From positions 1-32,000 of the forward strand of contig JAWOFX010000092.1 in assembly GCA_046497275.1 (NCBI GenBank): a DNA stretch of 32,000 nt, written 5' to 3'. Position 1 is the first letter of the stretch, and each line of letters begins with the position of its first letter. The notes under the pieces were generated by a model that did no database searches, had not been told where the DNA came from, and saw nothing but the letters and a program-made list of their open reading frames with translations. The stretch is from Promethearchaeia archaeon (GTDB lineage Archaea; Asgardarchaeota; Lokiarchaeia; Sigyniarchaeales; SOKP01). A program made the position numbers and the translations under genes. Positions 2,013 through 23,041 of the stretch are shown here, piece after piece.

Positions 2013-3278
2013 TTATCTATCTCTTTCAATCTCTTCAAGCGATTGTCCTTTTGTTTCGTATGGTTTTATTAATAATGATAGTGTTGGGATAAGGATAATT
2101 ATTCCTGCTACCATCCACAATAAAAACATATCTGGATCTATTAGAAACAAAGCAGATGCAATTAAAGGTCCTGTGACATATGAAGAACGAGCTGCGGTAT
2201 TTGTTATTCCTACAGCAGTTGATCTGATTCTAGTTGGAAATATTTCACCAAAATATACCATTATCCATGCTAAAACAACAGGCATGAATAAATAGATCAT
2301 CCAGAAGAATATAGGTTCTTGTGTAAATCCTAAAAAGAAAAACCCAATAGCAGAACCAATACAACCAATAAGTAAAGTTCCAATTCTTCCAAGTTTATCT
2401 AATAAGAGTCCTCCAATTCCAGCTCCTACCATTGTTAGTAAACCACCAATTGTCAAATAAGTGTCATATTGTTCTTCAGGAATTCCTACTACATTTATAT
2501 AATATTCGCCACCCCAACTAGTACCCATTTTAAATGAGATAGACCAAAGAGTATACACTATTGAGGAAATTGCCACGTAAAGAATATCTTTCTTTGTCAA
2601 TGATTTTATTGCATCTTTTATTTTTAAATATTTACCTCCATGATCTTCTTGTCTACTTGTTTTCCATCTTTCAGTCTCCTTCATGAAATACAAAGGGATC
2701 AATAGGATTAAAAATAAGAAAAACATAATACCATAGGCCCAATACCAACCTAATGAAGTTGATATCCTTCCGGCTACAAAAGCATATATAGGTATCAACC
2801 CAATTAGAAATGTCAGGCCACCATAAATCCCACGCTTCTTAGAGGGAGACTCTTCAGTAATAGGAATTTGCCATGCATTTGATTGAGTCGCCATTATAGA
2901 AATTCCATACATGGTCATTATAAAAAAGAAATTACCGGGAAAAAGCCCAATAAATAGACATGGGATTGCTAAGGTTGACATTAACAATAATATACCTTTT
3001 CTCCTACCGAATGCATCAAAAAACCAAGCAATGAAAAATACAGCAAATGATATTATCCCATATATTGATTGCCAAAAAGCAAAAGTATCTTTATTTAACC
3101 ATGGATAAAAAGCTATAATCTCAGGTATTATCCGAGATTCAACAAGCGAAATGAAATTATCCATGTTGCCTACTAGACCCATGAAAACTACCAAAAAAAT
3201 CATATAACCACGAGATCTTGGTTTAAATTCTTTTAATTCTTCTTCTTTTTTTTTTGCTAAAGCATCTAATTTTGCCAT
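2013..3278 (-). CDS. MFS transporter
   Basis: About 12 hydrophobic segments; motif A twice (FFDAFGRRKG, LLDKLGRIG); TEESPSKKRG and GEIFPTRIRSTAVG; C-terminal ETKGQSLEEI as in the sugar-porter/AAHS group. ATG at 3278 preferred over the TTG at 3293. Confidence 0.92.
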   Translation of the reverse strand: MAKLDALAKKKEEELKEFKPRSRGYMIFLVVFMGLVGNMDNFISLVESRIIPEIIAFYPWLNKDTFAFWQSIYGIISFAVFFIAWFFDAFGRRKGILLLMSTLAIPCLFIGLFPGNFFFIMTMYGISIMATQSNAWQIPITEESPSKKRGIYGGLTFLIGLIPIYAFVAGRISTSLGWYWAYGIMFFLFLILLIPLYFMKETERWKTSRQEDHGGKYLKIKDAIKSLTKKDILYVAISSIVYTLWSISFKMGTSWGGEYYINVVGIPEEQYDTYLTIGGLLTMVGAGIGGLLLDKLGRIGTLLIGCIGSAIGFFFLGFTQEPIFFWMIYLFMPVVLAWIMVYFGEIFPTRIRSTAVGITNTAARSSYVTGPLIASALFLIDPDMFLLWMVAGIIILIPTLSLLIKPYETKGQSLEEIERDR

Positions 3279-3600
3279 AGATATTGTTCTCAATCTAAAA
3301 ATATTTAAATCTTTCTATTTCTATGGTTTTCTCATATAATTAGAAATATTGTAGTAGCTCATTCAGAAAAATTAGTTAAAATTTAATATTTCACTTTTTT
3401 CGGAATTTTCAAACTTGATTTTACAATAAAATTTTAATATCAGGAAGATCGAAAAAATAGTTTATTCTGCGAATATTGTGTCAATTAAATATATTTTAAG
3501 TAAATTGAAAGATTTAATAAAAATAGATAAAATACAATATTATTAAAAATATAATTAATATAGCTAATACAACTAAAGCAATTTAATGTAGGATATAAAT

Positions 3601-4866
3601 ATGAAAAATAACAAAATTAAAATTAATCCTTGGGAGAGCGCTAAGAAAAAACTTCAAATTGCAGCTAAGGAAATTAATATGAAGCCAAACACCTTAAATT
3701 ATTTGAATAAAGTTGAACGTATATTAGTGGTCTCCGTACCAATCCTCAAAGATGATGGAAATTTGGAGATTTTTGAGGGATATAGATGTCATCATAGCAC
3801 ACTTAGAGGACCTGCGAAGGGAGGGATTCGATATTCTCCAGATGTAACCATGGATGAAATTAAAGCTTTAGCATTTTTGATGACGTGTAAAACAGCACTC
3901 TTAAATTTACCACTCGGAGGATCCAAAGGCGGAGTAAGAGTAGACCCTAATAAATTGTCGAAAAAAGAACTGGAACGATTAACAAGACGTTATACCGCAG
4001 AAATTATAAATGTTATTGGTCCAGATCTAGATATTCCCGCACCAGATATGGGTACTGATGAGCAAGTTATGGCATGGGTCTTTGACACTTATTCAATGCA
4101 AAAAGGTAGAACAATTCCTAGTTGTGTTACAGGGAAACCATCTGAGGTTGGAGGATCTGTCGGAAGAACTGGAGCAGTTGGTACTGGGATGTTTTATATT
4201 CTGGAAGAATTATGTAAAAAAAAAAATTTGGATCTCAAATCAATGACTATAGCAATCCAAGGGTTTGGAAAAGTAGGGAAAGAAATAGGAAAGAAATTAT
4301 ATGATTATGGCTGTAAAGTTATTGCTGTAAGCGACAGTAAAGGAGCAATTTTAAATAAAAATGGATTGGATATTGATAGTTTGATCAAATATAAAAATAA
4401 AAATAATGCTGTAAAGGATTTTAATTCGCAAAATAGCGAAATTATTACAAATTCTAATTTGCTTGCTTTAGATTGTGATATTTTATGTCCTTGTGCTACA
4501 GAAAATTTATTATACTCTGGAAATGCTGATAATGTAAGGGCAAAGATCATACTTGAAGGAGCGAATAGTCCAACAACATCAAAAGCGGATGAAATATTTG
4601 ATAATAACGGGATTATTGTTATTCCAGACATCCTATCTAATAGTGGAGGTGTTTGTATTAGTTATTTTGAATATATCCAAGATATTCAATCTTATTCTTG
4701 GGACTTAGAAAGAGTTAACAGGGAGATGAGAACAGTTCTTTTGAAAGCTTTTGAACAAGTTTATAATTTATCGAGAGAAAAAAATGTATCTTTAAGAACA
4801 GCAGCATATATGATTGCCGGTGATAGGTTGGCTAAAGCACATGAATGGAGAGATTTATTTCCATAA
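3601..4866 (+). CDS. Glu/Leu/Phe/Val dehydrogenase (glutamate dehydrogenase-like), divergent copy 1
   Basis: GPAKGGIRY, MTCK, GGSKGG, PAPD, VTGKP and QGFGKVG motifs; several canonical residues are altered (see findings). Confidence 0.93.
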   Translation: MKNNKIKINPWESAKKKLQIAAKEINMKPNTLNYLNKVERILVVSVPILKDDGNLEIFEGYRCHHSTLRGPAKGGIRYSPDVTMDEIKALAFLMTCKTALLNLPLGGSKGGVRVDPNKLSKKELERLTRRYTAEIINVIGPDLDIPAPDMGTDEQVMAWVFDTYSMQKGRTIPSCVTGKPSEVGGSVGRTGAVGTGMFYILEELCKKKNLDLKSMTIAIQGFGKVGKEIGKKLYDYGCKVIAVSDSKGAILNKNGLDIDSLIKYKNKNNAVKDFNSQNSEIITNSNLLALDCDILCPCATENLLYSGNADNVRAKIILEGANSPTTSKADEIFDNNGIIVIPDILSNSGGVCISYFEYIQDIQSYSWDLERVNREMRTVLLKAFEQVYNLSREKNVSLRTAAYMIAGDRLAKAHEWRDLFP

Positions 4867-4893
4867 ATAATAATATTTTGAGGCTAAAAAAAG

Positions 4894-6144
4894 ATGAGTG
4901 TAAATCCTTTTAAAATGGCTCAGCAACAGATTGATCTTGTTGCTAAATATGTTGATGTTCATTCTAATATTCTGGAATTTTTAAAAACCGTAGAAAGAAC
5001 ATTAATCGTGTCTGTTCCAATAAGGATGGATGATGGTTCAGTTAAGATTTTTGAAGGTTATCGAGCTCAGCATTCGACCGTTAGAGGTCCAGGAAAGGGC
5101 GGGATTAGATATTCTGAAAATGTGAATTTAGATGAAGTAAAAGCCTTGGCAACGTGGATGACATGGAAATCAAGCTTATTAAATCTTCCACTAGGAGGTG
5201 CGAAGGGGGGTGTAACTTGTAGTCCGGCAGAACTTTCCAAAGCGGAGATCCAAAGAATTACCAGAAGATATACCTCCGAAATAATTAATGTCATCGGTCC
5301 CGAATTAGACATTCCCGCCCCCGATGTCAATACAAATGCAGAAATAATGGGATGGATTATGGATACTTATTCTATGAATATGGGTCATCCTGTTCCGGGA
5401 GTGGTGACTGGTAAACCGATTGAAATAGGAGGATCAGTAGGCAGACAATCGGCTACTGGTACGGGGCTTTATTATGTTCTTAATGAATTATGTAATAAAC
5501 TTAATCTTCAGCTGAAAGAGCAAGAAATTATTATTCAAGGATTTGGTAATGTAGGAGGAACAATTGCTCAATTACTTTATCAACATGGTTGCAAAATAAT
5601 AGCGATCTCCGATATTTCAGGAGGCTTGTATTCGGAAAATGGCCTAGATATTGAAAAATTAATCGAATGGAGAGACGCGGGGAATTTATTTGTGGATTTT
5701 CCGTCAAATGATTATATTAAAATATCTAATGATGATCTTCTTACAACAGAATGTGATATCTTAATTCCTGCTGCAGTTGAAAATCAAATAACCAAAGATA
5801 ATGCGAACCAAATAGATTGTAAAATCGTTTTAGAGGGTGCTAATGGCCCCACAACTCCAGAAGCTGATGAGATCCTAAACCAGAAGAAGATTTATGTTGT
5901 TCCGGATATTTTAGCAAACTCTGGAGGGGTTTGCGTAAGTTATTTTGAATATGTACAAGACACTAGCTCTTATTTCTGGGATTTAGAACGTATAAATAAG
6001 GAACTTAAGAAAATCATTACCAATGCATTTGAAGATGTTTGGAGAACATCAATAGAGAAGAATGTTTCTCTACGTATTGCTGCATATATCCTCGCTGTTA
6101 CTCGAGTCGCAAAAGCAATCGAATTTAGAGGCTTCTATCCCTAA
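4894..6144 (+). CDS. gdhA: Glutamate dehydrogenase, canonical copy 2
   Basis: GPGKGGIRY, MTWK, GGAKGG, PAPDVNT, GRQSATG, QGFGNVG, EGANGPTT, PDILANSGGV, VSYFE and terminal RGFYP. Confidence 0.95.
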   Translation: MSVNPFKMAQQQIDLVAKYVDVHSNILEFLKTVERTLIVSVPIRMDDGSVKIFEGYRAQHSTVRGPGKGGIRYSENVNLDEVKALATWMTWKSSLLNLPLGGAKGGVTCSPAELSKAEIQRITRRYTSEIINVIGPELDIPAPDVNTNAEIMGWIMDTYSMNMGHPVPGVVTGKPIEIGGSVGRQSATGTGLYYVLNELCNKLNLQLKEQEIIIQGFGNVGGTIAQLLYQHGCKIIAISDISGGLYSENGLDIEKLIEWRDAGNLFVDFPSNDYIKISNDDLLTTECDILIPAAVENQITKDNANQIDCKIVLEGANGPTTPEADEILNQKKIYVVPDILANSGGVCVSYFEYVQDTSSYFWDLERINKELKKIITNAFEDVWRTSIEKNVSLRIAAYILAVTRVAKAIEFRGFYP

Positions 6145-6251
6145 GAATTCTTCTATAAAAGCAATCATCTCAGAACTGGAAATTATATATTCATATTATT
6201 ATATTCTTTTTTTCATAATATGACAAAAATATAATTCAAAGAATTAAGAAA

Positions 6252-7031
6252 TTAAATATTCGTTAGTAAGGGTAATAAGTTATTTATTATCGAATTCATA
6301 GCGATGAATGATTTTGAATTCGTAGGAATTTCTATGATCGGCTTTCCTTTTAAATCATATTCAGAAATTATCTCATCCTCTGGAATCTGACCGATTAGTG
6401 GTATATCTAAATTTTTTATATAATCTAAAATCAATCCATAATCTTTTTTAACTCTATTTAAAATCAATCCAATATATTTTGAATGTGTGAACTTTTGAGC
6501 GGTTAGTTTGATTGATTTAACCGTTTCTAAGCTTCTAATAGTCATATCCGAAATGATAAGTATGACATCTACATTTCTGATTACTTTTCTATTAATTTGC
6601 TCTAAACCTGCTTCGCAATCAATTAAAATTATATCATAATCTTGAGATATTGAATCAATAACACTTCTGAGTAAAGTGTTTAAAGGACAGAAACATCCTT
6701 CGATATTTGGTTGACCAATGGAGAGTAATCCAAATCTCTTAGTCTCTTCAATTATATTGTAAACCTTATAATCAATTTCTTGAGCAATTTTATCAATTCG
6801 GAGAGTTTTATTAATAGATTTTTGTATAATTTCAGTTCTGAGATCCTCAATTGTGTTTTTAGGAATTAAATTCATCATATAACTTAGATGGGGATGTGTT
6901 GGATCTCCATCTATTAATAATAGTTTCTTATTATATATCTCGATTAAAACTTTTGCCATGAGTGTTGTTGTTAAACTCTTCCCAGCACCACCTTTTCCAT
7001 TAATAGATATTATTATTGATTTTTTAGCCAT
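6252..7031 (-). CDS. cooC: CooC/AcsF-type nickel-insertion ATPase (MinD/SIMIBI family)
   Basis: Deviant Walker A GKGGAGKS, IDGDP, metal-binding GCFC (6687-6698) and DCEAGLE. Confidence 0.88.
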   Translation of the reverse strand: MAKKSIIISINGKGGAGKSLTTTLMAKVLIEIYNKKLLLIDGDPTHPHLSYMMNLIPKNTIEDLRTEIIQKSINKTLRIDKIAQEIDYKVYNIIEETKRFGLLSIGQPNIEGCFCPLNTLLRSVIDSISQDYDIILIDCEAGLEQINRKVIRNVDVILIISDMTIRSLETVKSIKLTAQKFTHSKYIGLILNRVKKDYGLILDYIKNLDIPLIGQIPEDEIISEYDLKGKPIIEIPTNSKSFIAMNSIINNLLPLLTNI

Positions 7032-7047
7032 TTCTTATACCTTTATA

Positions 7048-7815
7048 CTATCTTTCTAATTCTTCTCTTTTTTTTAAGATTAATTGAATATTTTGACAAG
7101 ATTTTAAATACGGACAGATCTCGCAAGTCCATGAATATTCACAGTCTATTCGTTTCTTCCAATTATTTACTTTATCTCTCCATATACCGTCCACTTTTAA
7201 TTGGATATCAGAAACAAGATTTAAAAAATCTTCAACAACACTTTTATCTGAATTAACCATAAAGATTTTTATTGAGTGAATGAAGTCTTCGTATTTTTGT
7301 TTATATAGAAATATAAATGCTTTAGCAAGAAATTCAAATGAAAAATTTTTTTCAATTAATTCTTTACTAATACGACACCAAAATTTTCTTGGTATTGTTC
7401 TTTGAGATAATCCTTCGATACTATCCGAAATAATAGAAAATTGGCGAATTTCATCAAATAGAGGTTCTTTAATCTCTTTTAATTGGATTAGAATAAATAA
7501 TCCAAAATTGAGGTTTTTATCATTTCTCTCAAATATTTCATCTCCCAATAAATAGATAAAATCCCTATTATCATCCAATTGCTCTTGAGTTGGATAAATG
7601 AGAGAAAATGATTTCTTACCAATACCACCTAATTCTATTCCCAGTTCCTCTTTAAGCACAATATCTCTATGACTTCCCAATTCTAATCTGATATCGGTAC
7701 TTTTTAGAAATTTCTCCAAAGAATCATCGATTTCAAAAACTTTTAATTTTATTGAATACTTAGACTGTTCTTCAAAAAATTCAATTATACGTAAGAGGTG
7801 ATCGTTAATATTCAA
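7048..7815 (-). CDS. Truncated acetyl-CoA synthase beta (CdhC/AcsB) middle-domain-like protein with C-terminal Cys4 motif
   Basis: ELGG...SFSLI, LLGDEI, IEGLSQR...WCRISKE...KNFSF resemble the ACS middle domain (EMGG...AFELV...IGPDI...EGLWH...WLRVSK...KGF; comparison from memory). Ends in C-x5-C-x2-C-x5-C (7096-7143). TTG start. Confidence 0.7.
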   Translation of the reverse strand: MNINDHLLRIIEFFEEQSKYSIKLKVFEIDDSLEKFLKSTDIRLELGSHRDIVLKEELGIELGGIGKKSFSLIYPTQEQLDDNRDFIYLLGDEIFERNDKNLNFGLFILIQLKEIKEPLFDEIRQFSIISDSIEGLSQRTIPRKFWCRISKELIEKNFSFEFLAKAFIFLYKQKYEDFIHSIKIFMVNSDKSVVEDFLNLVSDIQLKVDGIWRDKVNNWKKRIDCEYSWTCEICPYLKSCQNIQLILKKREELER

Positions 7816-7922
7816 TCTGAATCAATTAGAATGATTTATATCATTAGTTTATTTAGAAAATAATTAAATATATATTAATTAAAGAACAATTAACTTTTAT
7901 TAAATTTATAAGTATTAAAAAA

Positions 7923-8342
7923 ATGATTGATATTCAACACCCTAAGGATTTGCTTTCAGTTTCTATTAAAAATATTCTAAGTTATCGTCCCGATTCAGAA
8001 ATGATTGAATTACTAAGAAATTATAATAAGAAAATCATAATAGAGTTAGAAAACTTTTATCCTGTAATGGTTATAATTCAAGATAAAAATATATCTTTTA
8101 ATTTTGGAGAGAAAATTGGAAAAGCTGATTTAAAGATAAAAATGGATTTAAATACCCTATTGGACTTAGCTTATAAAAGATTAGGACTAGTAAAGGCTGT
8201 ACTAACTCGACGATTGAAAATTAAGGGAATTTATAAACTAAAGACTGTTCTGAGATTCAAAAAAATCTTTCTCGATACTTTAAAAATGCTTGCAGCAGAT
8301 CCTAATCAAAACTATTATGAATTAAATAAAAACACCAGATAG
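7923..8342 (+). CDS. SCP2 sterol/lipid-binding domain protein
   Basis: ADLKIKMDLNTLLDLAYKRLGLVKAVLTRRLKIKG matches the SCP2 pattern ADxTIxM...KL...A...GKLKIxG. Confidence 0.78.
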   Translation: MIDIQHPKDLLSVSIKNILSYRPDSEMIELLRNYNKKIIIELENFYPVMVIIQDKNISFNFGEKIGKADLKIKMDLNTLLDLAYKRLGLVKAVLTRRLKIKGIYKLKTVLRFKKIFLDTLKMLAADPNQNYYELNKNTR

Positions 8343-8353: not shown

Positions 8354-9835
8354 ATGACTACTATAAAAGATAACCAACGCTATAATGGCTTAAGTAAGGA
8401 AGATGTATACAAAAAATTGATCCAAATATTTGGAGACTCAAATGTAAGCAAACGAGCTGTTGATTTATATCCTTATTCCTATGATATGACAGAGTGCGAA
8501 GCTCATATGCCCGATTATGTGGTAATTCCAGAAAATTCTGAACAAATTATTGAATTAGTGAAGTTTTGTAATAAAAATATTATTCCAATCGTACCCTATA
8601 TCACTGGAAATAATGTAGGAGGGCTGACAATTCCTCAATATGGAGGAATTATATTAGATTTTAGTAAGAAAATGAATAAAATCCTTCATATCAATGAGGA
8701 TATGATGTATGCATTATTAGAACCAGGAGTCACTTTTGGTCAATTAAAAAAACACTTGGATGAAAAGTATCCTCACCTAAGATATAGCTATCCTTATGCG
8801 CCACCTTATGCAGGTGTGGTAGGTAATGCAATTTTGAGCGGTATGAATAACTTGTCTTGTAAAATCGGTTCTATGGGTGACTCTATTAATGGTTTAGAAG
8901 TTATAACTGCCGATGGAGAGGTTGCTAGAATAGGATCATGTTTTTATGGTGAAAAGGATGCAGATAAGGATAGCTGGTGGGCCAGATATCCAATGCCAGA
9001 TTTAATGGGTACATTTGTAAATTGGCAAGGTATGACTGGATTAGTAACTAAATGTGCAGTTCAGCTTTGGTCAAATCCTCCATACAAGAAAACTTTTCTC
9101 GTTTTAGTCAAGGGTTTAACAGATATTGCTCCAGTAATAAGAGAAATAGGAAAAACAGATGTGGTTGATGACGTTTCAGCGGTTAGTACAGAAGTGGTAA
9201 AAATGACCGTAGAGATTCCTGATCCCGAGAAATATCCGGGAGAACCTGATTTTGTTGCTCTTTTTCCGATATCTGGAAAAACAAAAAAATTATTAGAAGC
9301 TAAAAATGAAATTGTGCTAAATAAAATAAACGAATTGAAGAACCAAGGGAAAAATATAATTGTAGCGGATGTAGATGAGTTCGCCAAAATTTTCAATTTA
9401 CGTGTACGATGTCATTTAGATTTACCCGCAGTTCTATTATCTTTAGTTGAATATTCAGGTTTAACTTGGTTCGGCTCTTATGCTCCAACACATAAGTTAG
9501 AAGAATTAATCCAAAAAATTGATGAAATTTTCCATGAATATGATGTACCATCATTTATCTATATGAAAATCATGAAATCAGGTCATTATGGCATTTTCAG
9601 ACCTATTATACGCTATAATAAATATAAAGATGGCGAAGAAGAGAAAATCCATCAATTACTTAACGATATTACTGATTTTTGTCTAAGTAGGGGATGTATA
9701 CCTTATAAAACACCCTCTTGGATGACGGAAAAAATGCGAAAGAAAATAAATCCAGGCTGGTTGAAATTATTTGAAAAAATAAAAAATTGTATGGATCCTA
9801 ATAATATATTCAATCCAGGAAGGTGGAACACGTAA
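8354..9835 (+). CDS. FAD-binding oxidoreductase, VAO/PCMH-type fold (FAD_binding_4)
   Basis: PDYVVIPENSEQI, GGIILDF, EPGVT, GLEVITADG, PDLMG...GMTGLVTK and terminal DPNNIFNPG. Confidence 0.9.
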   Translation: MTTIKDNQRYNGLSKEDVYKKLIQIFGDSNVSKRAVDLYPYSYDMTECEAHMPDYVVIPENSEQIIELVKFCNKNIIPIVPYITGNNVGGLTIPQYGGIILDFSKKMNKILHINEDMMYALLEPGVTFGQLKKHLDEKYPHLRYSYPYAPPYAGVVGNAILSGMNNLSCKIGSMGDSINGLEVITADGEVARIGSCFYGEKDADKDSWWARYPMPDLMGTFVNWQGMTGLVTKCAVQLWSNPPYKKTFLVLVKGLTDIAPVIREIGKTDVVDDVSAVSTEVVKMTVEIPDPEKYPGEPDFVALFPISGKTKKLLEAKNEIVLNKINELKNQGKNIIVADVDEFAKIFNLRVRCHLDLPAVLLSLVEYSGLTWFGSYAPTHKLEELIQKIDEIFHEYDVPSFIYMKIMKSGHYGIFRPIIRYNKYKDGEEEKIHQLLNDITDFCLSRGCIPYKTPSWMTEKMRKKINPGWLKLFEKIKNCMDPNNIFNPGRWNT

Positions 9836-11026
9836 ATGACTGAAATAAAAATTCCAGATAATATTATGGGAAAAGAATTTTTAAAACTTTCTTTTGACCA
9901 TTGCATTAAATGTAGCACTTGTAAATATTCGTTTAAGGGTTTTACAGATTCATGTCCCTCGGGAAAATCATTCTTTTTTGAATCTTTTTGGGCATCTGGA
10001 AAAATACGAACAACACGGGGCTTATTATTAGGTGAATTAGAATGGAATGAAGATCTAAAAGATGCGATTTTTGCTTGCCCAACGTGCGGAGCATGTATGG
10101 ATGCGTGCCAAGCACCTCACGCGGATTATATTGTTGATATTATAGAAACACTTAGAGAATTAGCAGTGAAGAATATTGGACCTGCCCAAAACCAAGAAAA
10201 ATTAGTTGAGAGAGCAACTAATCCAAAAATGTGGAATCCTTATGGTGAACCTAATTCCAATAACGAAGCGTTAAAGAAAAAATATAATTTACCGGATAAG
10301 GCAGAATGGGTATATTATATTGGATGTACTTCTAATTATAGACAAAAAACATTAAGAGACTCAACTCTTAGGTTCTTAAAAAAAGCAGGAATAGATTTTA
10401 CTTTGATTGATGAACATTGTTGTACAAGCCCTATGATTAGAACAGGTCAAATTGAAAATAGTAAAGAATTTATGCGATATAACGTGGAAAAAATTGAAGA
10501 GGCTGGAGCAAATAAAGTCGTAACATCTTGTGCGGGGTGTTATAGAACTTTAAAAAAAGATTTTGAAAAATTTGGAATAGATTATGATTTTCAAGTTTAC
10601 CATACGGTTGAATTATTAAAAGAACTTATTGATTCTGGAAAAATTAAAATCAAGTCTAAATATAACAAGAAACTTACTTATCATGACCCATGTCATCTGG
10701 GAAGACATATGGGAATTTACGAAATTCCTAGGGAAGTATATAAGAAAATCCCTGGTATTGAATTTCTTGAAATGGAAAGAAATCGAAATCATTCTTGGTG
10801 TTGTGGGGCGGGAGGAGGAGTAAAAATTGGATATCCTGATTGGGCAATAGATATTTCAAAAGAAAGGTTAGAGGAAGCAAAAGAAACAGGAGCAGAAGTT
10901 TTATCCTCGACATGTCCCTTCTGCAAGACTAATTTGAGTGATGCTAACGAAAAATATGGCTTTAATCTTCAGGTCTTAGATCTGGTGGAGATATTAGATT
11001 CACTCGAGATAGAAATAATAAAATAA
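9836..11026 (+). CDS. Fe-S oxidoreductase with two ferredoxin motifs and two CCG domains (HdrD/GlcF-like)
   Basis: CIKCSTC...CP, CPTCGACMDAC, IGC, CCT, SCAGC, YHDPCHLGR, CCGAGGG and CPFC. Start directly abuts the upstream stop (TAAATG). Confidence 0.92.
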   Translation: MTEIKIPDNIMGKEFLKLSFDHCIKCSTCKYSFKGFTDSCPSGKSFFFESFWASGKIRTTRGLLLGELEWNEDLKDAIFACPTCGACMDACQAPHADYIVDIIETLRELAVKNIGPAQNQEKLVERATNPKMWNPYGEPNSNNEALKKKYNLPDKAEWVYYIGCTSNYRQKTLRDSTLRFLKKAGIDFTLIDEHCCTSPMIRTGQIENSKEFMRYNVEKIEEAGANKVVTSCAGCYRTLKKDFEKFGIDYDFQVYHTVELLKELIDSGKIKIKSKYNKKLTYHDPCHLGRHMGIYEIPREVYKKIPGIEFLEMERNRNHSWCCGAGGGVKIGYPDWAIDISKERLEEAKETGAEVLSSTCPFCKTNLSDANEKYGFNLQVLDLVEILDSLEIEIIK

Positions 11027-11028
11027 TT

Positions 11029-12219
11029 TTAATCTTTATTTTCATATTGCTCTTTGGCAATTAAATATTCAATTTTTTGTTCTAATTCCTCAAGCGTGAG
11101 TTCTTCAACTTTATCTTCATACCCCAATGCTTTTAATTTTTTTATTTTTTTTGCTCGTTCCTTATCTGCTTTTTTTTGTTTAAACTCTAAGAAACTTAAA
11201 TGGTCTGTTTTAGCTCTCTGTTTTTTAATCTCATCTTCCGGAACTTTATTAAGTAATTCCTTCACATCGCTTATTTTTTCAAATTTTTCCTTCATCTCTT
11301 TCATAATCTGTATTTGAACACTCATAGACTTTGGATCTTTCTCCCCTCGAAATACTTTAGTTGTATTTGTATTACTCAGAGAGTATTTATTATTAACACC
11401 AGGTGCCGTGTTTACATTTGGAGGTGGATTTAATTGGTTGGGTGCCCCATATGAACCAGTCGGAGCTTGAAGATATACAGGGTTTGCAGGAGCGGATGAT
11501 TTATTTAGTGCAATTTGCTTAATAGTTGAATTGAGTTCTTTTACTTGTTGCTTTAATTCCTTCAATTCCTTAAACCCTTGACGAATCATAAAAAAAGTTG
11601 TATCCCATGTCTTATCACCTTTTATTTCTAATAATTTCTGAAATTCTGATTCTGATATTTCAATTTTTTTTAAAGTTATTTCTCGATTATTAGACTTCAA
11701 GGAATTTTTAATAATTTTAGAACTCGATCCTTTCATTAATTTCTGATTGTTTTTTCTTCTAGGTTGAGATGATTTATTTACACTTGTCTTCTTTTTATAA
11801 GAATATCTTGTTTTAGTTTCATAGACTACCTCTTCTTCTAATATTTCAAAAAATTCTCCATCATCAAATAGAATTTCAGAAAGTTGGAAAGATTTATTGA
11901 TGAATATCTCTTCTCTATCCCCCGAATAATAATAAATTGTAAGTCTAATTACACGAATTTTAAGATCTTCAATATTACTTAATTTATCCAATTCAATTGA
12001 AAAAATTAGGATATTTGCTGAAAAGTGAAAGTTTTTAATGGATAATAGAAATGGTTCTTGAATAATATTTGGTGCTCTCTCATTCACTTTTAGCAACTCA
12101 AACTTAAGATTCATACTTTTTATAGTGTCGGGAATTAATCTATCTATCTCATCTTGATCCTTTCTGAATTTAAAAAGAAGTTTATTTTGATCTTCCCAAC
12201 ATAATTGTAAGAGTTGCAT
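11029..12219 (-). CDS. Hypothetical modular protein (beta-rich N-domain, RHH-like segment, coiled coil, Pro-rich linker, charged helical tail)
   Basis: 396-aa ORF; domain layout judged from composition only. Confidence 0.8.
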   Translation of the reverse strand: MQLLQLCWEDQNKLLFKFRKDQDEIDRLIPDTIKSMNLKFELLKVNERAPNIIQEPFLLSIKNFHFSANILIFSIELDKLSNIEDLKIRVIRLTIYYYSGDREEIFINKSFQLSEILFDDGEFFEILEEEVVYETKTRYSYKKKTSVNKSSQPRRKNNQKLMKGSSSKIIKNSLKSNNREITLKKIEISESEFQKLLEIKGDKTWDTTFFMIRQGFKELKELKQQVKELNSTIKQIALNKSSAPANPVYLQAPTGSYGAPNQLNPPPNVNTAPGVNNKYSLSNTNTTKVFRGEKDPKSMSVQIQIMKEMKEKFEKISDVKELLNKVPEDEIKKQRAKTDHLSFLEFKQKKADKERAKKIKKLKALGYEDKVEELTLEELEQKIEYLIAKEQYENKD

Positions 12220-12401
12220 ATCTCATTTAACATCCGATTTTTGTCGGATCCTTTCGAATGGAATATTCCTTTAGTTATCTTAGAGATAAGGAAAATTTAA
12301 ATGAAGATGGTCTCTAAATTTATTATAAAATAAATCTTGAAAAAATAAGAAAGAATTGAGAATTAAATAATTGCAATAAAAAAAAGATTTTAAGATATAA
12401 T

Positions 12402-13409
12402 CTATGGAATAGCGGTAGAGTCCCACGGAATTGGTATGCTTAGGGTCACGTTGATTGAAATCCCTCCAAATTCAGTATCAAATATTAAATTATAACTAAG
12501 ATTTGCATTCGTGGTGGCCAAACCTTCTATATATGACGTATCCATGACAGCTGTAAGATTTTGATTAAAAACACCGTCAAAAGCCCCGATTGAAGTATAG
12601 TGATTAATCGCAGATTCTCCAATTTTAGTATCAGGAGGAAGGGCACTTCCATTATCACTTGAAGATACCCAAATTTCAGATTTAAGATTTAGATTGGTAA
12701 GAGGATAGATCCCACCATTTGAAATATCATAAGTTAAAGTAAAATTTAATTCATCATCACCATAGTTCCCCGGGGGGGCCGTACCACCATCATCATAATC
12801 ATAATCATACGAAACTAAATTTGGTCTTAACATTACTCCGCTGCCTATGAGACTGAGTATCCAACCTACTAATATAAGACTCAAAATAACACCTACTACT
12901 TTAAATAGGAGGCTTGGTCTCGCTCTTCTTTTATATTCTGTAGAATCTTTTGTTACTCCACGTAATTCAAACGCTTCAAAGAGATATTGGAGACTTCTTA
13001 CTCCCGCTGATAATAATAATAACCAAGCGATAAATTGTAAGCCTAATGAAACGCTGAGTTGTTGTGTTGCAATAGAAAAGTTTCCTAAATCTTTATTTGG
13101 ATTAAAACCACCAAAGATATAAAAAAGATAAACTCCAGAAAATACAGTTATTATGAACATAATAACTCTATTCTTTGCTGAATCTTTTGGATAAGCTGCT
13201 TTCAAAACTGCCAGAAATACACCCACCAAACCAAATATTATTATACCAGTAATAAAAGCTTGACTAACTGTAAATATACCATAAAAATCAAGTCCTAATA
13301 GAATACCAAGCGGAATTGCAATATAGAGGATAGCATAAATGATTCCATTGAGGATCATCTTACCTATTTGAATTTCCATTTTAGATTCAAACTCATATTT
13401 ATTATTCAA
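12402..13409 (-). CDS. Membrane protein, about 5 TM segments plus C-terminal extracytoplasmic beta domain
   Basis: Hydrophobic segments followed by an acidic Ser/Thr/Asn-rich domain with several NxS/T sequons. Confidence 0.85.
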   Translation of the reverse strand: MNNKYEFESKMEIQIGKMILNGIIYAILYIAIPLGILLGLDFYGIFTVSQAFITGIIIFGLVGVFLAVLKAAYPKDSAKNRVIMFIITVFSGVYLFYIFGGFNPNKDLGNFSIATQQLSVSLGLQFIAWLLLLSAGVRSLQYLFEAFELRGVTKDSTEYKRRARPSLLFKVVGVILSLILVGWILSLIGSGVMLRPNLVSYDYDYDDGGTAPPGNYGDDELNFTLTYDISNGGIYPLTNLNLKSEIWVSSSDNGSALPPDTKIGESAINHYTSIGAFDGVFNQNLTAVMDTSYIEGLATTNANLSYNLIFDTEFGGISINVTLSIPIPWDSTAIP

Positions 13410-13747: not shown

Positions 13748-14152
13748 GTGAGATTCATCAAACAAAAAACACATAATAAAATAAATAATAATTTATGCGG
13801 TACCCCAATAGAATTAAAAGAGGGTTATAGTAAATTAAAACTGACTCCCAATAAAAAAATGGTTTTAGATGAGTCAAATTTAATACATGGAGGTTTCACA
13901 TTTAGTCTTGCTGATTATGCTGCAATGTTGGCTGTTAACCACTCTAATGTTGTTTTAACAGAAGCAAATGTTCGGTTTATAAAACCAGTAATTTTGGGGG
14001 ATATACTTATTGCAGAAGCTCATATTATGCAGAAAGAGGGAAAAAAAATTATAGTTGAAGTAAATATAAATAAGAATGGCATTAATGTTTTTGAAGGTGA
14101 ATTTAAATGTTATATTCCAGAGATTCACATACTCGGAGGGGAGATTATATGA
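13748..14152 (+). CDS. PaaI-family hotdog-fold thioesterase
   Basis: HGGFTFSLADYAAMLAVN and VRFIKPVILGDILIAEA. Stop overlaps the next start (ATGA, 14149-14152). Start codon uncertain. Confidence 0.9.
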   Translation: MRFIKQKTHNKINNNLCGTPIELKEGYSKLKLTPNKKMVLDESNLIHGGFTFSLADYAAMLAVNHSNVVLTEANVRFIKPVILGDILIAEAHIMQKEGKKIIVEVNINKNGINVFEGEFKCYIPEIHILGGEII

Positions 14153-15885
14153 ATGGTGGTGAGCTAATTGGTCAAATTCTTAAAAAAAAAAGAGTTGATT
14201 TTATATTCACATTATGTGGTGGGCATATAGCACCAATTTTAGTTGGAGCCAAAAAACAAGGATTAAGAGTTATTGATGTGCGACATGAGCCTACAGCGGT
14301 TTTTGCAGCAGATGCAGTTTCACGACTTACGGGTATACCAGGTGTTGCAGTTGTTACAGCAGGTCCAGGAGTGACTAACTCGGTTACTGCTGTAAAGAAT
14401 GCTCAAATGGCACAATCTCCACTAATTTTATTAGGAGGTGCAGCAGCAACAGTTTTACAAGGGAGGGGGGCCCTTCAAGATATTGAACAACTTGATTTAT
14501 ATAAATCAATTGTAAAATGGGAAACCTCGATAGAGCAGAATTGCGATATTGAACCGATTTTGAATGAAGCTTTTGAAGTTTCAATGTCGGGAATTCCAGG
14601 TCCGGTTTTTATAGAATGTCCAATCGACGTATTATATGAAGAAGAACTTGTTAGAGAATGGTATGGAAAACGTTCGAAATCTCAAATCAACTCTTTAAAA
14701 CAGAAAGTGGTTAATTGGTACCTTCAGAGACATGTAGATAAGCTTTTTGCATGTTCAATTGATGATGTAAAAAATAAAGAAAATGAGGATATTGTACCAT
14801 TTTCTGTCGATCAAGAACAATTACAGAAAGTTGCTTCTCAAATTAACAATTCAAAAAAACCCGTTTTGATATTAGGAAGTCAAGCCACAAAACGAGTTGA
14901 ATTAGTTTATGAACTTGCAGAGGGATTGAAAAATTTTGGGGTACCTGTTTTTTTAGCAAGCATGTCAAGAGGGCTACTTGGAAGGGATCATCCTTCATAT
15001 TTTCGTCATGGACGTTCAAAGGCGCTTAAAGAAGCAGATTTAATAATAATATGTGGAATGCCTTGTGATTTTAGATTAAATTATGGAAGAGCACTTAATA
15101 AAGGAGCTTTCCATATAGCAATCAATAGAAGTAAAGATGATTTGACTAATAATAAAAAACCAGATATGGCAATTCAAGCCGATCCCGCAACATTTTTAGT
15201 AGAACTTTCTAAATCATTCTCATTTGAAAGAGAAAAATGGTTTCAATGGTATGAGACTTTGAAAGAATGGGAAATGGGTGGTAAAGCCAAAATTGAAAGA
15301 TTTGCTCATGTTGATACGGATTTTTTAAATCCATTAGCTTTTTTGAAGGAGATTTACAACTATATAGAGGATAATGTGATTATAATAGGAGATGGTGGTG
15401 ACTTCATTGCAACAACATCCTATATTATTAAACCACCAAAACCTTTATCTTGGTTGGATCCTGGTCCTTATGGCACATTAGGAGTTGGTGCTGGATTTGC
15501 ATTAGCAGCTAAATTAGTGCATCCAGAATCAGAAGTATGGCTTTTTTGGGGTGATGGTGCAGCTGGGTATAGCATTGCGGAAATTGATACATTTGTTAGA
15601 CATAGCTTGCCAATAATTTCAGTGATTGGAAATGATGCTGGCTGGACTCAGATTGAAAGAGATCAAGTAGAATATTTAGACGATTCGGTTGGAACGAACT
15701 TGAAATTCACAGATTATCATATAGTAGCAGAGGGATATGGAGGAGAAGGATTACTATTAAAAAATAAGGCGAATATTTCCCGTGTGGTCAACCAAGCAAA
15801 ATTATTAGCCAAAAATGGTTCTCCCGTACTTATCAATGCTCTTATGGGTAAGACAGATTTTCGAAAAGGCTCAATCTCAATGTAG
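14149..15885 (+). CDS. ThDP-dependent enzyme of the ILVBL/HACL2 (acetolactate-synthase-like, 2-hydroxyacyl-CoA lyase) subfamily
   Basis: [38 protein letters not shown]...GNDAGWTQI and terminal [11 protein letters not shown], very like human ILVBL as recalled ([20 protein letters not shown]). True start taken as MNGGELIG at 14149. Confidence 0.88.
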
Positions 15886-19140: not shown

Positions 19141-20442
19141 TTAGATTTTTAAAATTTCAGTATCTTCGTAGCCTTCTGCCAATTTAGGTTTTATGAAATG
19201 AATTGAACTTAGATAAAAGGGGATTAAGCATAATTCTACAAAAATTGAAATTATGAATGGCGCTTTTAATCCTAAAAAATCAACGGCTAACCCTCCGAAT
19301 AAAGGTCCTATAATAAATCCAAAACTTCTAAAAAATCTATATGCTCCCATCATTTTACCTCGATGACCAATAGAAATTCTACTATAAATATTTTGCATTA
19401 AAATATTTCCAATATTTACTATTGCTGTATCAAATGTCAGGAGTAGTGAAAACAATATGATGTTATCAATATTGATTATTGCCCACGTAATAGAGGCTCC
19501 GATTATACTTATAATGAGTAATCCTAACGTTGGACTAATTCTATCAATGATATCTCCTAATTTAGGAGCAAGGAACATTGCGATAATACCACTTGGAATA
19601 TAGGCAAGCATCGCAAATATAGTATTATCAACAATCTCTTCAATAACATAGACATTTAGGAAAGGTTTAGCAAGCGATCCATTAATATTACTCAATAAAA
19701 TAACCAAACAGAAAAACAGAATTCCTATTAAAATACTATTGTTTGTAATATTTCGATTATTATTCAAATCTTCTTTATTTTTCACAGAGAAATTATTTTT
19801 TTCTGTAGGGAATTTGATTTTTTCATCAACCTTATAATGGAAAAGAATGCCTGCATAAAAGTTAGAAATCCCATAAATCAATATTGAACAATAAGTAAAA
19901 AAGAGATTATTTGGGAAAAAATAAATACCAATACCTAATATTCCAAAACCAAATAGTCCTCCTATAAATAATCCTTTTCCAACAGCAGAATCTCTTTTTC
20001 CATATGCATGGGATCGATGATTTTTATTAGATTTCTCAGCAATGATGGTATCAAAAGGAATCCAAAAAAATCCTACAAAGATTCCTATAGAAAATGTACC
20101 AATTCCAATATAAAAGAGAGATTTAAAGACAATAGCAAAATAAAGAATGAAATAAGCTATTCCTCTTCCGAAGGAACCCAGTAATATCAATTTAGTTCTA
20201 GATTTTATTTTATCGGTTAAATAACCTGTAAAAAATGTACTTATCAATAACCCAATAGTTTGAACTGAAAATATTAATCCAACATCAAATCCAGATGCGT
20301 TTAATTCTTGTGTAGCGTAAATAGGGATAATGAATTCTAAAAAGAAAAACCCAAGACTATTAAAAATTACATTATTGATTACAGATTTGAAATCATCGGT
20401 ATATTTCTTCTCTTGGTTTTTATGTGTGTTTCTTATCTTCAT
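19141..20442 (-). CDS. MFS transporter
   Basis: About 12 TM segments, motif A (GYLTDKIKSR; GDIIDRI), GFIIGPLFGG. Confidence 0.92.
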   Translation of the reverse strand: MKIRNTHKNQEKKYTDDFKSVINNVIFNSLGFFFLEFIIPIYATQELNASGFDVGLIFSVQTIGLLISTFFTGYLTDKIKSRTKLILLGSFGRGIAYFILYFAIVFKSLFYIGIGTFSIGIFVGFFWIPFDTIIAEKSNKNHRSHAYGKRDSAVGKGLFIGGLFGFGILGIGIYFFPNNLFFTYCSILIYGISNFYAGILFHYKVDEKIKFPTEKNNFSVKNKEDLNNNRNITNNSILIGILFFCLVILLSNINGSLAKPFLNVYVIEEIVDNTIFAMLAYIPSGIIAMFLAPKLGDIIDRISPTLGLLIISIIGASITWAIINIDNIILFSLLLTFDTAIVNIGNILMQNIYSRISIGHRGKMMGAYRFFRSFGFIIGPLFGGLAVDFLGLKAPFIISIFVELCLIPFYLSSIHFIKPKLAEGYEDTEILKI

Positions 20443-20770
20443 ATTCAGAGTAAATGTCAGATATATTTATCATAATAGTTAATGTAAATTATATTTTTTT
20501 AAAAATTGATTAAAATCGATTTCAAAATCTTAATCATCATAATTAGAGATTTTATTTGGAAAGTTATTGATGAATTTCATTTATAACATTCGTGAAAGCA
20601 CACTTTAACGCAGAAAGATATATATCTAAATGATATAGGAGTGATATATTCATTATTTTATAATTTGAAAAATGAAAACCATGAATGAATAATCAAAAAA
20701 TATTTGATACTGCTAATTTTTTTTAATTTACATGCTTTTATTTAAATAAGCATAGTTAAAATTATCGAGG

Positions 20771-23041
20771 GTGATTGCGATTCCACTTACAAGAGTAGGT
20801 AAAAAGGATCTTGTGCCGATTATTCTGGTACTTTTACTCTTATTCGTCTCAATAGCATGTGCTAATATGTTAATTCCTTCTTATGCTGCTATAAAAGATG
20901 AATTTGGTATATCTGAATCCTTAATTGCAATACCAGATGCCTTTTTTGTGTTAGTTAGTGCGTTTTTCGCATTAGTTTGGGGATATTATACTGATAGAAT
21001 AAATAGAACAAAATTAATCTTCGCTGGGGCATTTTCTTGGACAATTGGAATGCTTTTAACTGGATTTAGTATTAACTTGCCAATGATCATTTTTTCCCGT
21101 ATGCTAAGTGGAGCGGGTTTAGGATGTGTGTTACCTGTGGGGTATTCCATTATTTCTGATGCGATCCCTCCAGATGAACGATCTGGATGGTTCGGAATGC
21201 TTGCAATATTGAGTTCAGTTTCAAATGGTATAGGACAAGCACTATCATCATTTATTGGTCCTTTACTTACTTGGAGATTTCCTTTTTTCCTCTTGTCTGG
21301 AATAAGTTTAATAATTGTATTCTTTCTATTCTTTATTAAATTGCCCTATAGAGGGGCAAGTGAGATCGAATTAACAGAATTAGGGGATTTGAATCTTGAA
21401 TATAGTTATAGAATTTCTAAAACTGATTTAAATGAAATAATTGGAAAAAAAACAAATCAATATTTGGTTATTCAAGGGTTTTTTTCCATCATTCCCGGTA
21501 CAATTTTTATATATTTTTTAACCTCAATGTTTACTCTTATTTATTTTAATCCATTACCTCAAGAAATAAGACTTCAGACCGCTACTATTTTTGCAGGTTT
21601 GGTTGGAATAGGATATCTGTTAGGAAATATAATTCTTTCGGCACTTGGAGATTATTTATTTAAGAAAAATAAAAAAAATAGAGCAATACTAGCGACTATT
21701 TGTATGTTAGCTACAGTTCCAATCAGTTTATTAATGTTGTTCTTTATTCAGCCAATTGAATTAAATGCATTAGGAATAAGTTATCCATCTGTGATTTATC
21801 CCTCAGAAATTGCAACGTACTTATTTAGAACAATTGGCGCAATCTTTATTACCTATCCAAATTTTATTTTCTTTTTTATTTTTGCTTTGATTGGTTCAAT
21901 TTTAAGCAGTGGTCCCGTCGCAAATAGAAATGCTGTTATGATTGACGTTAATTTACCAGAACATAAAGGAACAGCAGCCTCCTTATTCAACCTTTCAGAA
22001 CAAATCGGAAAAGGTGTAACACTTCTAATCTCATTCCTACTGATTTCTTTACTGGGTAGTATTTACAGAATGATGATTTTTTCTGTATTTTTTTGGCTAC
22101 CCGCAGGGGTATTATGGTTTTTAGCAAGTCGTAAAGTTGAAGAGGATATGGAAAAGAAATCAAAAATCTTAAAGGAAAGAAAACAGATCACTTTAATAGA
22201 TTTTATTTTTGAACTTGAAATTCAAATGGACAGGGCAATACAAAAAATACAAGACTCTAAGTATTATATTAAAAAAGATAAAGAGAAATTTTTAGAGCTT
22301 TTAAATAACGCAATTGATATTCTAGAGAAATGTGAAAAACAATCTAAAGTAACAAGTATAACTAATATTCAAAATAAAACAAAAAAAATTAAAGAGAAAG
22401 CTAAACTCGTCAAAAATCAAGTGAAAGAGATTTATAAAGAACTTAAAAAGAAAGATATTCCAGAACAAAGAAGAAAAAGTCTTAATGAAGATTTAAACCA
22501 AATAAAATTATGGATGGGGGAGTGGGAAAAATCTACATTTGGCACTATTCAGACATATTATGAAGATGCGTATTTAAAAATATTAGAAGCAAGACTGTTA
22601 AGAAAAGTAAACTTTCTTGAGGCTTTATCTAAGATTCAAAATGCTATTAGCATTTATCATAGAGTTAAACATTTACTTAGTGAAAGGATTGATACGGTCG
22701 ATAAGAAGAGTGATTTATCTGAAGAAGATTTAGTTGCCTATGAAAAAGAAATGGAATTACAGAAAAAATCTCGCGACGCTCTATGGGCAACTATACATCT
22801 CAAAAACCAAATCGATGATGTAATCTCAAAATTAGAAGAACATAATATTGATAAAAAGGATTTAAAAAAAATCTCTAATCTCACCTCTGAATATGATATA
22901 AATATTCATAAAGTAATATTAGATACCTTCGCTCAAGATAAAACAACAAAAAGAAAATTAAAATTAATCTTGGATGAGATCAATAAGAGTTTTAATGAAT
23001 TCGACAAATTGTATGAATTGCAAGATCTTCAGGTGTTCTAA
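20771..23041 (+). CDS. MFS transporter with ~300-aa C-terminal soluble helical domain
   Basis: WGYYTDRINRT, SDAIPPDERSGWFG and DVNLPEHKGTA in the first ~460 aa; E/K-rich helical tail from about nt 22150. GTG start uncertain. Confidence 0.92.
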   Translation: MIAIPLTRVGKKDLVPIILVLLLLFVSIACANMLIPSYAAIKDEFGISESLIAIPDAFFVLVSAFFALVWGYYTDRINRTKLIFAGAFSWTIGMLLTGFSINLPMIIFSRMLSGAGLGCVLPVGYSIISDAIPPDERSGWFGMLAILSSVSNGIGQALSSFIGPLLTWRFPFFLLSGISLIIVFFLFFIKLPYRGASEIELTELGDLNLEYSYRISKTDLNEIIGKKTNQYLVIQGFFSIIPGTIFIYFLTSMFTLIYFNPLPQEIRLQTATIFAGLVGIGYLLGNIILSALGDYLFKKNKKNRAILATICMLATVPISLLMLFFIQPIELNALGISYPSVIYPSEIATYLFRTIGAIFITYPNFIFFFIFALIGSILSSGPVANRNAVMIDVNLPEHKGTAASLFNLSEQIGKGVTLLISFLLISLLGSIYRMMIFSVFFWLPAGVLWFLASRKVEEDMEKKSKILKERKQITLIDFIFELEIQMDRAIQKIQDSKYYIKKDKEKFLELLNNAIDILEKCEKQSKVTSITNIQNKTKKIKEKAKLVKNQVKEIYKELKKKDIPEQRRKSLNEDLNQIKLWMGEWEKSTFGTIQTYYEDAYLKILEARLLRKVNFLEALSKIQNAISIYHRVKHLLSERIDTVDKKSDLSEEDLVAYEKEMELQKKSRDALWATIHLKNQIDDVISKLEEHNIDKKDLKKISNLTSEYDINIHKVILDTFAQDKTTKRKLKLILDEINKSFNEFDKLYELQDLQVF

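Follow-up and report, generated by a model that had tools for sequence, protein, structure and literature searches.

What does a protein that corresponds only to the middle domain of acetyl-CoA synthase (ACS) do beside a CooC-type ATPase, in an archaeon that encodes its full-length ACS elsewhere? The question arises from a 32,000-nucleotide stretch of DNA (the window hereafter; positions 1-32,000 of contig JAWOFX010000092.1, assembly GCA_046497275.1) from a Promethearchaeia archaeon, in which two adjacent genes encode a short ACS-like protein, here called mini-ACS, and its partner ATPase. A first-pass annotation had described the two as an operon lying apart from carbon monoxide dehydrogenase (CODH)/ACS core genes, and had suggested that the short protein may be a metallocluster scaffold, a sensor or a partner in corrinoid methyl transfer. 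The two genes form a conserved operon module that is found from bacteria to Asgard archaea. In bacteria the pair is an accessory of operons for ATP-driven radical enzymes of the benzoyl-CoA reductase (BCR) or 2-hydroxyacyl-CoA dehydratase (HAD) type, and in Asgard archaea it accompanies an FAD/CCG dehydrogenase. The module stands outside the Wood-Ljungdahl machinery, and mini-ACS is tentatively read, with a probability of about 0.4, as a CooC-matured iron-sulfur (Fe-S) protein, possibly nickel-bearing, that faces CoA and acts as a partner of the neighbouring redox enzymes.

Identity and Fold of Mini-ACS

The sole Pfam match of mini-ACS is to CdhC (PF03598; E 4e-10, 40.2 bits against a cut-off of 24), and it covers residues 52-191. 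NCBIfam holds no model for such a protein and gives far-sub-threshold matches to full cdhC alone, with mini-ACS reaching about a tenth of the cut-offs of the full-length cdhC and acsB models (37 bits against 356 for cdhC). The structure predicted by AlphaFold2 from a 104-row alignment is confident (pLDDT 91, pTM 0.84), with low confidence in the Cys loop alone, as is expected because the metal is absent from the model. A Foldseek search with this model returned 23 PDB chains at E < 1e-3, all of them ACS/CdhC (best 2e-10), the next match having an E of 0.7. Superposition on ACS with VIA-align gave a Z of 18.0 and a root-mean-square deviation of 2.7 Å over 178 residues, and placed model residues 33-235 on ACS residues ~313-533, so that the match spans A2 and continues into the cubane-binding loop. 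When an Asgard profile was aligned to the genome's own 477-aa CdhC using hhalign, residues 57-237 fell on residues 23-199 with a probability of 93%, and C231-x2-C234 was set on the CxxC of that CdhC.

These results agree with the first-pass annotation, which had likened the protein to the middle domain of ACS only, had noted its C-x5-C-x2-C-x5-C ending and had pointed out that in ACS the CxxC after this domain ligates the A-cluster 4Fe-4S. The four Cys are read in the open reading frame (ORF) as C225, C231, C234 and C240, and the structural alignment reaches ACS residue ~530. From the four-Cys cubane site of the ACS A3 domain, the CxxC alone aligns, and mini-ACS ends 21 residues later, at residue 255, with no A3 domain past the CxxC and no Cys-Gly-Cys for the distal Ni. 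As had been proposed, a protein without the distal-Ni region cannot be a normal ACS; mini-ACS amounts to A2 followed by the opening turn of the A-cluster site. We take the cubane Cys pattern of the Moorella A-cluster to be C-x2-C-x8-C-x9-C, the second Cys of the CxxC presumably bridging the cubane and the proximal Ni. With characterised ACS (AcsB/CdhC; PDB 1ru3, 1oao, 3git and 9c0s), mini-ACS shares the A2 fold over residues ~33-235, the ELGG and W-x-R-[IV]-S motifs and a CxxC at the homologous place. It differs in having just 15-19% identity, in the absence of A1, of A3 past the CxxC and of the distal-Ni Cys-Gly-Cys, in an added N-terminal helix-strand-helix (residues 1-40), in a new Cys spacing, and in not being encoded with CODH, CFeSP or methyltransferase genes.

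Family Size and Conserved Residues

Mini-ACS belongs to a large family. A word-indexed search recovered 291 homologues of 140-447 aa, nearly all of them 253-260 aa, which carry PF03598 and come from Asgard metagenome-assembled genomes (MAGs) of the Promethearchaeota/Lokiarchaeota, Thor-, Hod-, Hermod- and Odinarchaeota. An exhaustive HMMER search of 1.8 billion cluster representatives gave 199 clusters (50% identity) at E < 1e-3, almost all with lengths of 230-290 aa, and no full-length ACS was present in the best 150 of the 199. Further clusters of ~240 aa, mostly from Bacillota, were found in the ESM Atlas. A quick tree served solely for choosing representatives.

Across 23 Asgard sequences all four Cys of the loop are invariant, and C147 nearly so. 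Over 104 diverse members, with identities down to ~20%, G91, C231, C234 and C240 remain invariant, and E61, L62, G63, S69, G135, W146 and R148 nearly invariant. In most clades a fourth Cys precedes the other three at a spacing of x4-5 (x5 here); it is absent from bacterial clade IV, which has CxxCx5C alone, usually with Asp or Asn right before the first Cys. With three Cys fixed and the fourth ligand variable, the loop would suit a [4Fe-4S] cluster that has either one special iron or a further metal attached to it.

The shortness of mini-ACS relative to ACS is all that would favour a decayed gene fragment or chance ORF, an explanation that deserves almost no credence, as length, motifs and partner are kept across bacteria and archaea and the predicted fold is compact and confident. 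Nor is the gene a recent pseudogene, a possibility that the first-pass annotation had raised, since the length and the CxxCx5C core are kept in hundreds of homologues; the other ground for refutation that it had named, a lack of structural resemblance to ACS, is removed by the fold.

The Partner ATPase

CooC is known to insert Ni into CODH. The partner of mini-ACS can be aligned end to end with CooC1 from Carboxydothermus (PDB 3kje; E 2e-13), with C113-F-C115 falling on the CYC of CooC1. MinD structures outscore CooC1 slightly, over the C-terminal half only, and the Fer4_NifH family of Pfam matches across the full length (E 4e-14). In alignments of 36 partners, the Walker A residues G12, K13, G14, G15, G17 and K18 are invariant, as are G112, C113, C115 and N118 of the CxC site; across 78 partners encoded with mini-ACS, conservation is at least 95% both for the Walker A residues and for the stretch G112-C113-[FY]-C115-P-x-N-x-L-L. 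Judged by its sequence, the partner is a genuine CooC-family ATPase, which bears out the earlier description of a CooC-type ATPase with GCFC (here EGCFCP) encoded across a 16-nt gap.

The partner resembles CooC1/AcsF in its deviant Walker A with the signature lysine, in the CxC at the same alignment position, in length (259 against 254 aa) and in the location of its gene beside an ACS-derived client. It differs in that the putative client has no Ni-Ni site, and in an operon context of BCR/HAD-type or FAD/CCG enzymes. Two more CooC paralogues with CxC (CYC and CLC motifs) are encoded in the genome, at 48044-48829 of contig C33 and 67621-68424 of contig C44, and the identity of the partner to these is ~30% or less. 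The C44 paralogue adjoins HypC-like and [NiFe]-hydrogenase-like genes, not CODH/ACS genes. Within the family, CooC and AcsF use ATP to insert Ni into CODH and ACS, with AcsF acting on ACS (Gregg et al. 2016, as cited in PMC10134865). Given this precedent, the most likely task of the partner is to load or repair a metal site of mini-ACS.

A predicted complex of two CooC chains and one mini-ACS scored 0.59, against 0.28 for the best of three controls. Of the calibration set, 58 of the 80 solved complexes and 2 of the 110 mismatched pairs attained the mark; with a score no higher than 0.60, only 7 of the solved complexes did so, along with both of the passing mismatches. The job was unlike the calibration in having its own alignments and two CooC copies. 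The runs agreed in at least 59% of contacts, and the partner pLDDT was at least 75. This lends weak support to a predicted complex of mini-ACS with two CooC chains.

Near-identical DNA is present in sediment metagenomes, and RNA libraries labelled 'salt lake metagenome' contain parts of the stretch. Parts of both genes are covered by contigs from four RNA runs (three studies), which match the window at 95% or more and in most cases exactly; one of them, 162 nt long (6981-7142), spans the spacer and extends 51 and 95 nt into the two genes. Other parts are without these contigs (e.g., 6040-6547), which is uninformative either way. The contigs give a hint that the pair is transcribed but cannot prove it, as DNA carry-over is possible.

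Gene Neighbourhood in Asgard Archaea

The Asgard survey comprised 79 loci from species-representative genomes, and in 74 of them a CooC-like gene is next on the same strand after mini-ACS. The spacers between the two genes range from -11 to ~+31 nt in relatives, so that the genes often overlap. In 55 of the 79 loci there are also genes for an FAD protein of the GlcD superfamily and for a CCG protein like HdrD, in two gene orders. In the co-directional order (31 loci), FAD, CCG, mini-ACS and CooC genes follow one another, with the CCG gene directly upstream of mini-ACS, and they are often preceded by an unknown gene for a 162-aa protein and two HGD-D genes; the same order of FAD, CCG, mini-ACS and CooC is seen again in a Lokiarchaeota sister clade (L088). 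In the divergent order (17 loci), which is that of the window, CCG, FAD and SCP2 genes run in the opposite direction to mini-ACS and CooC, with the SCP2 gene nearest to mini-ACS. HGD-D genes are present in 25 of the 79 loci, and their nearest solved relative is BzdN of benzoyl-CoA reductase (PDB 8s02, E 3e-38).

The 162-aa protein (cluster 9; L014:93-581) has no Pfam or NCBIfam match, lies ahead of two HGD-D genes in 14 Asgard loci, and occupies the place where an activator gene would be expected. Second mini-ACS copies without a CooC neighbour are located at L038:5974-6741, L045:3442-4209 and L068:5974-6738, in genomes that already have the pair. All three adjoin two HGD-D genes, and L038 and L068 have a BcrAD_BadFG activator too. 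A PF03692 protein (CxxCxxCC, Zn/Fe-chelating) comes directly after the copies of L045 and L068; this protein may be an alternative partner.

The suggested role in corrinoid methyl transfer is not supported, as no general link was found. A gene of the URO-D family (MtaA-like methyltransferase/decarboxylase) is divergently upstream of mini-ACS in only ~9 of the 79 Asgard loci (L020:4757-5908 and ~8 others), and in other loci a DUF1847 Cys-rich protein is encoded at the same place (L027:5298-5774).

Gene Neighbourhood in Bacteria and Distant Members

Seven distant loci were checked by hand, and the CooC-like gene follows mini-ACS in all seven. In four of these (Thermodesulfobacteriota and other metagenome bacteria) the full operon HGD-D, HGD-D, activator(, activator), mini-ACS, CooC is present, and two are short contigs in which the activator alone or CooC alone is visible beside mini-ACS. 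A metagenome scan based on a bacterial clade (80 loci, crude ORF calls, with denominators that vary by gene) found the CooC-like gene next after mini-ACS in 46 of 56 bacterial loci, a BcrAD-type activator directly upstream of mini-ACS in 45 of 53, and HGD-D in 28 of 35. One bacterial locus, L129, carries FAD/CCG genes as well. The pair thereby ends an operon of HGD-D and activator genes akin to those of BCR (BcrCBAD/BzdNOPQ) and 2-hydroxyacyl-CoA dehydratase, although the characterised operons are without ACS-like or CooC-like genes, and neither HGD-D nor activator genes are found in the window by Pfam-based gene annotation.

In one Thermodesulfobacteriota MAG (L083:7749-10026), genes for a 375-aa multi-ferredoxin-domain protein, HypA and a CobW/HypB GTPase come after the pair, an arrangement that resembles the IsrA-HypA-HypB isoprene-reductase-type operon described in PMC10134865.

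The gene orders bear on the proposal that the CooC dimer is an ATP-driven electron pump with a CxC-bridging Fe-S cluster, in the manner of NifH/BchL, which would feed the radical enzymes via mini-ACS with electrons that could originate from the FAD/CCG dehydrogenase. This would be consistent with the full-length Fer4_NifH match, with the dehydrogenase genes upstream in the same operon in the 31 co-directional Asgard loci, and with the electrons beyond the normal redox window that BCR-type chemistry needs, according to PMC11971306. One or two BcrAD-type ATP-driven activators are, however, already upstream in the bacterial operons, so that a second pump looks redundant; electron transfer is known for no CooC-family member, and the CxC spacing equals that of the CooC1 Ni site. 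The pump is therefore regarded as improbable.

Relation to the Wood-Ljungdahl Pathway

The first-pass annotation had found no CODH/ACS core genes nearby, and this holds for the whole window, with the genome's own cdh genes on other contigs (the full-length CdhC on C11, CdhA on C46 and CdhD on C136). No CODH/ACS genes were noticed beside the pair in ~160 loci, where no search by name was made. Of 121 Asgard genomes, ~19 have mini-size PF03598 frames, and most of these also have full CdhC. The phylum of the bacterial locus L089, sampled as genomes at a minimum completeness of 90, has such frames in 19 of 251 genomes, and 8 of the 19 are without a full-length ACS match. These eight genomes, and a pair that was not seen beside CODH/ACS, argue that the pair is not an accessory of the classical complex.

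Two Asgard genomes (G100 and G097) have mini-ACS and no full CdhC match, and were considered as a sign of independence from the pathway. They were dropped since CdhA and CdhD are present in both, so that the absence of cdhC is probably an assembly gap.

An accessory role within the pathway, with mini-ACS as a regulator, decoy or assembly adaptor of CODH/ACS and CooC as a Ni chaperone, would fit a genome that holds full CdhC, CdhA and CdhD, and the co-occurrence of full CdhC in most Asgard genomes having mini-ACS. It is very improbable in view of the ~160 loci and the eight bacterial genomes above, and because the two further CxC CooC paralogues are available for CODH/ACS. Homologues of mini-ACS bear the JGI label 'CO dehydrogenase/acetyl-CoA synthase beta subunit', and PF03598 matches alone are poor evidence for the Wood-Ljungdahl pathway in metagenome annotation.

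Proposed Function

In ACS, acetyl-CoA mainly contacts A2, and the CoA adenine stacks on Trp405 of the Clostridium autoethanogenum enzyme, according to a preprint (bioRxiv 10.1101/2024.08.05.606187). Since A2 holds acetyl-CoA and the usual neighbours of the pair act on CoA thioesters, a CooC-matured Fe-S partner of these enzymes is favoured. Mini-ACS would hold a [4Fe-4S]-type cluster with one special ligand position, to which Ni may be attached as at the proximal site of the A-cluster. An ATP-bound CooC dimer would load or repair this site via its CxC, like CooC/AcsF on CODH/ACS, and holo-mini-ACS would be reserved for the neighbouring enzymes, acting either in low-potential redox reactions or in handling their substrates. 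Here its task would be to connect the dehydrogenase of the SCP2/FAD/CCG operon with BCR-like enzymes whose genes lie on other contigs. The place of mini-ACS in the operon is one that we take to correspond to that of the ferredoxin (fdx) gene downstream of bcrCBAD in Thauera.

Several points weigh against this proposal, in which we infer every mechanistic step. The universal Cys number three, too few for a cubane and a Ni site in one monomer, and with an invariant CxxCx5C core, a fourth ligand that is Cys or absent and a loop of low confidence in the AlphaFold2 model, the metal may also be Zn. The adenine-stacking Trp is seemingly not kept, as the matching Moorella Trp (in our own residue numbering) aligns with a variable residue of mini-ACS. 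Ni genes are rare near the pair, with HypA/HypB in 2-3 of ~160 loci. The window is without HGD-D and activator genes, the genome's 11 HGD-D matches being elsewhere, so that the link to BCR-like enzymes here rests on relatives. The predicted complex with CooC passed only weakly, and it is not obvious why a simple electron carrier should need an ACS domain of 200 aa or an ATPase of the CooC type.

CCG domains bear non-cubane clusters, as in HdrB. The pair may instead serve cluster assembly, as a carrier or scaffold like Nbp35/ApbC or NifH maturation that would build the unusual Fe-S clusters of its neighbours, namely the [8Fe-9S] double cubane or [4Fe-4S]-OH2 of HGD-D proteins and the non-cubane clusters of the CCG proteins. 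It can be said for this that both neighbour types bear unusual clusters (for HGD-D, PMC11971306 and PMC7317905), that the variable fourth ligand of the Cys loop fits a labile, transferable cluster, that CxC motifs meeting at the interface of a MinD-type dimer could hold a cluster between them, and that the pair is an operon accessory, never fused to the enzymes. The available text of PMC11971306, on the other hand, reports that cluster-bearing BzdNO was made in E. coli from a plasmid with BzdNO alone and mentions no maturation, assembly or accessory factors for it, which weakens an assembly role. Most HGD-D and CCG proteins in nature are also without the pair, this genome having 11 HGD-D matches but one mini-ACS, and characterised CooC-family members insert Ni, not Fe-S. 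An assembly function is consequently seen as unlikely. The sensor role that the first-pass annotation had named beside the scaffold stands as a further rival.

A catalytic role has also been weighed, in which Ni-loaded mini-ACS would make, exchange or cleave acyl-CoA thioesters for the CoA-dependent radical enzymes and so stand in for the CoA-transferase or ligase that operons of this kind usually require. A2 is the main contact of acetyl-CoA in ACS, the A-cluster CxxC is kept along with the Cys that presumably bridges the cubane and the proximal Ni, and the named relatives of the partner act on Ni sites (AcsF on ACS, CooC on CODH). There is, in addition, no CoA-transferase or ligase among the called neighbours in eight hand-checked loci, and CoA-ester genes (SCP2, 4HBT thioesterase and a FadH-like enzyme) lie near the pair in the window. 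Such a role is purely speculative and appears a long shot, with the distal-Ni Cys-Gly-Cys and the whole A3 domain absent, too few Cys, and an adenine-stacking Trp that seems not to be conserved. It is likewise doubtful, and quite unlikely overall, that the pair is a minimal A-cluster-like Ni-Fe-S cofactor system which would add thioester chemistry or ultra-low-potential electrons to BCR/HAD-type and FAD/CCG enzymes.

Organization of the Window

The features of the locus are listed in Table 1. An AGGT is located ~10 nt ahead of the ATG of the CooC gene, inside the 16-nt spacer. The palindromes seen between the two divergent operons consist of low-complexity AT repeats alone, and have no evident significance.

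Table 1. Coordinates of the mini-ACS/CooC pair and the divergent operon beside it.
Feature	Position	Strand	Remarks
Mini-ACS gene	7048..7815	-	255 aa, TTG start; A2 domain and C-terminal Cys loop
Pfam CdhC region, residues 52-191	7243..7662	-	A2 core with ELGG and WxRIS motifs
Cys loop C225-x5-C231-x2-C234-x5-C240	7096..7143	-	Predicted metal (4Fe-4S-type) site
Operon-junction spacer, 16 nt	7032..7047	-	Separates mini-ACS and CooC genes
CooC-family MinD-type ATPase, 259 aa	6252..7031	-	Pfam CbiA/AAA_31/Fer4_NifH
Deviant Walker A GKGGAGKS, G12-K13-G14-G15-A-G17-K18-S19	6975..6998	-	
CxC metal motif C113-F-C115	6687..6695	-	Codons TGT TTC TGT; within EGCFCP
Divergent intergenic region, 107 nt, AT-rich	7816..7922	.	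Common to SCP2-FAD-CCG operon
SCP2-domain protein	7923..8342	+	PF02036, E 4e-9; heads divergent operon
FAD_binding_4/FAD-oxidase_C flavoprotein, GlcD/VAO-PCMH superfamily	8354..9835	+	Pfam
HdrD/GlpC/TfrB-like Fe-S protein, two CCG domains	9836..11026	+	PF02754, E 4e-35, and Fer4_8; TfrB-like, E 5e-68

The flavoprotein and CCG protein of the divergent operon have the same architecture as split YdiJ, GlcDEF and PCMH-type systems, in which no characterised member is tied to an ACS-like protein, CooC or an SCP2 protein. The nearest solved structures of the flavoprotein are p-cresol methylhydroxylase and vanillyl-alcohol/eugenol oxidases (E 8e-33 to 1e-28), with lactate and 2-hydroxyglutarate dehydrogenases trailing (E 7e-18 and weaker) and mainly the FAD domain covered. 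Its substrate is possibly a phenolic or other non-2-hydroxyacid compound.

On the other side of the pair, tandem glutamate/leucine/phenylalanine dehydrogenase paralogues (3601-6144) are convergent with the CooC gene, and such a tandem (cluster 11) adjoins the pair in 13 of the 79 Asgard loci. A 346-aa leucine-rich-repeat protein is encoded at 945-1985, and a related gene (cluster 6) is downstream of the pair in 21 Asgard loci. At 13748-15885, a 4HBT/PaaI-like hotdog thioesterase gene overlaps by 46 nt the start of a gene for a 592-aa thiamine pyrophosphate enzyme, which has sub-threshold matches to acetolactate synthase (403 bits) and 2-hydroxyacyl-CoA lyase (293 bits) and may be a CoA-ester lyase. 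The 669-aa fusion of Old Yellow Enzyme and pyridine-nucleotide-disulfide-oxidoreductase domains at 27377-29386 is of the type of FadH, BaiCD and mycofactocin-OYE-like enoate or dienoyl-CoA reductases. Two minus-strand ORFs of 396 and 335 aa, at 11029-13409, are without a Pfam or NCBIfam match. Two major facilitator superfamily transporters are encoded at 19141-23041, one of 756 aa with the transporter domain confined to its first half, and a further one at 2013-3293.

Significance

Searches of the literature turned up neither an account of an ACS homologue made of a stand-alone A2 domain nor one of its pairing with CooC, in agreement with the first-pass annotation, which knew of no characterised function for the pairing, and a 2026 preprint on ACS phylogeny treats, in its available text, two- and three-domain ACS forms only. 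The novelty lies in familiar families in an unstudied combination and role, in that textbook Wood-Ljungdahl components, an ACS domain and CooC, have been recruited to ATP-driven radical acyl-CoA enzymes and flavin/CCG dehydrogenases, in a family that comprises ~200 clusters at 50% identity.

If the Ni-Fe-S site is real, mini-ACS would give the A-cluster another natural model and would extend the clients of CooC chaperones by a new class; if it is instead a donor of electrons or clusters, the pair would bear on the supply of BCR-type enzymes. For Asgard archaea, the pair represents an unstudied module tied to amino-acid or aromatic/acyl-CoA fermentation. Should the two genes indeed be a cofactor system, ACS would have an ancient single-domain sister outside carbon fixation, in bacteria and in the archaeal relatives of eukaryotes.

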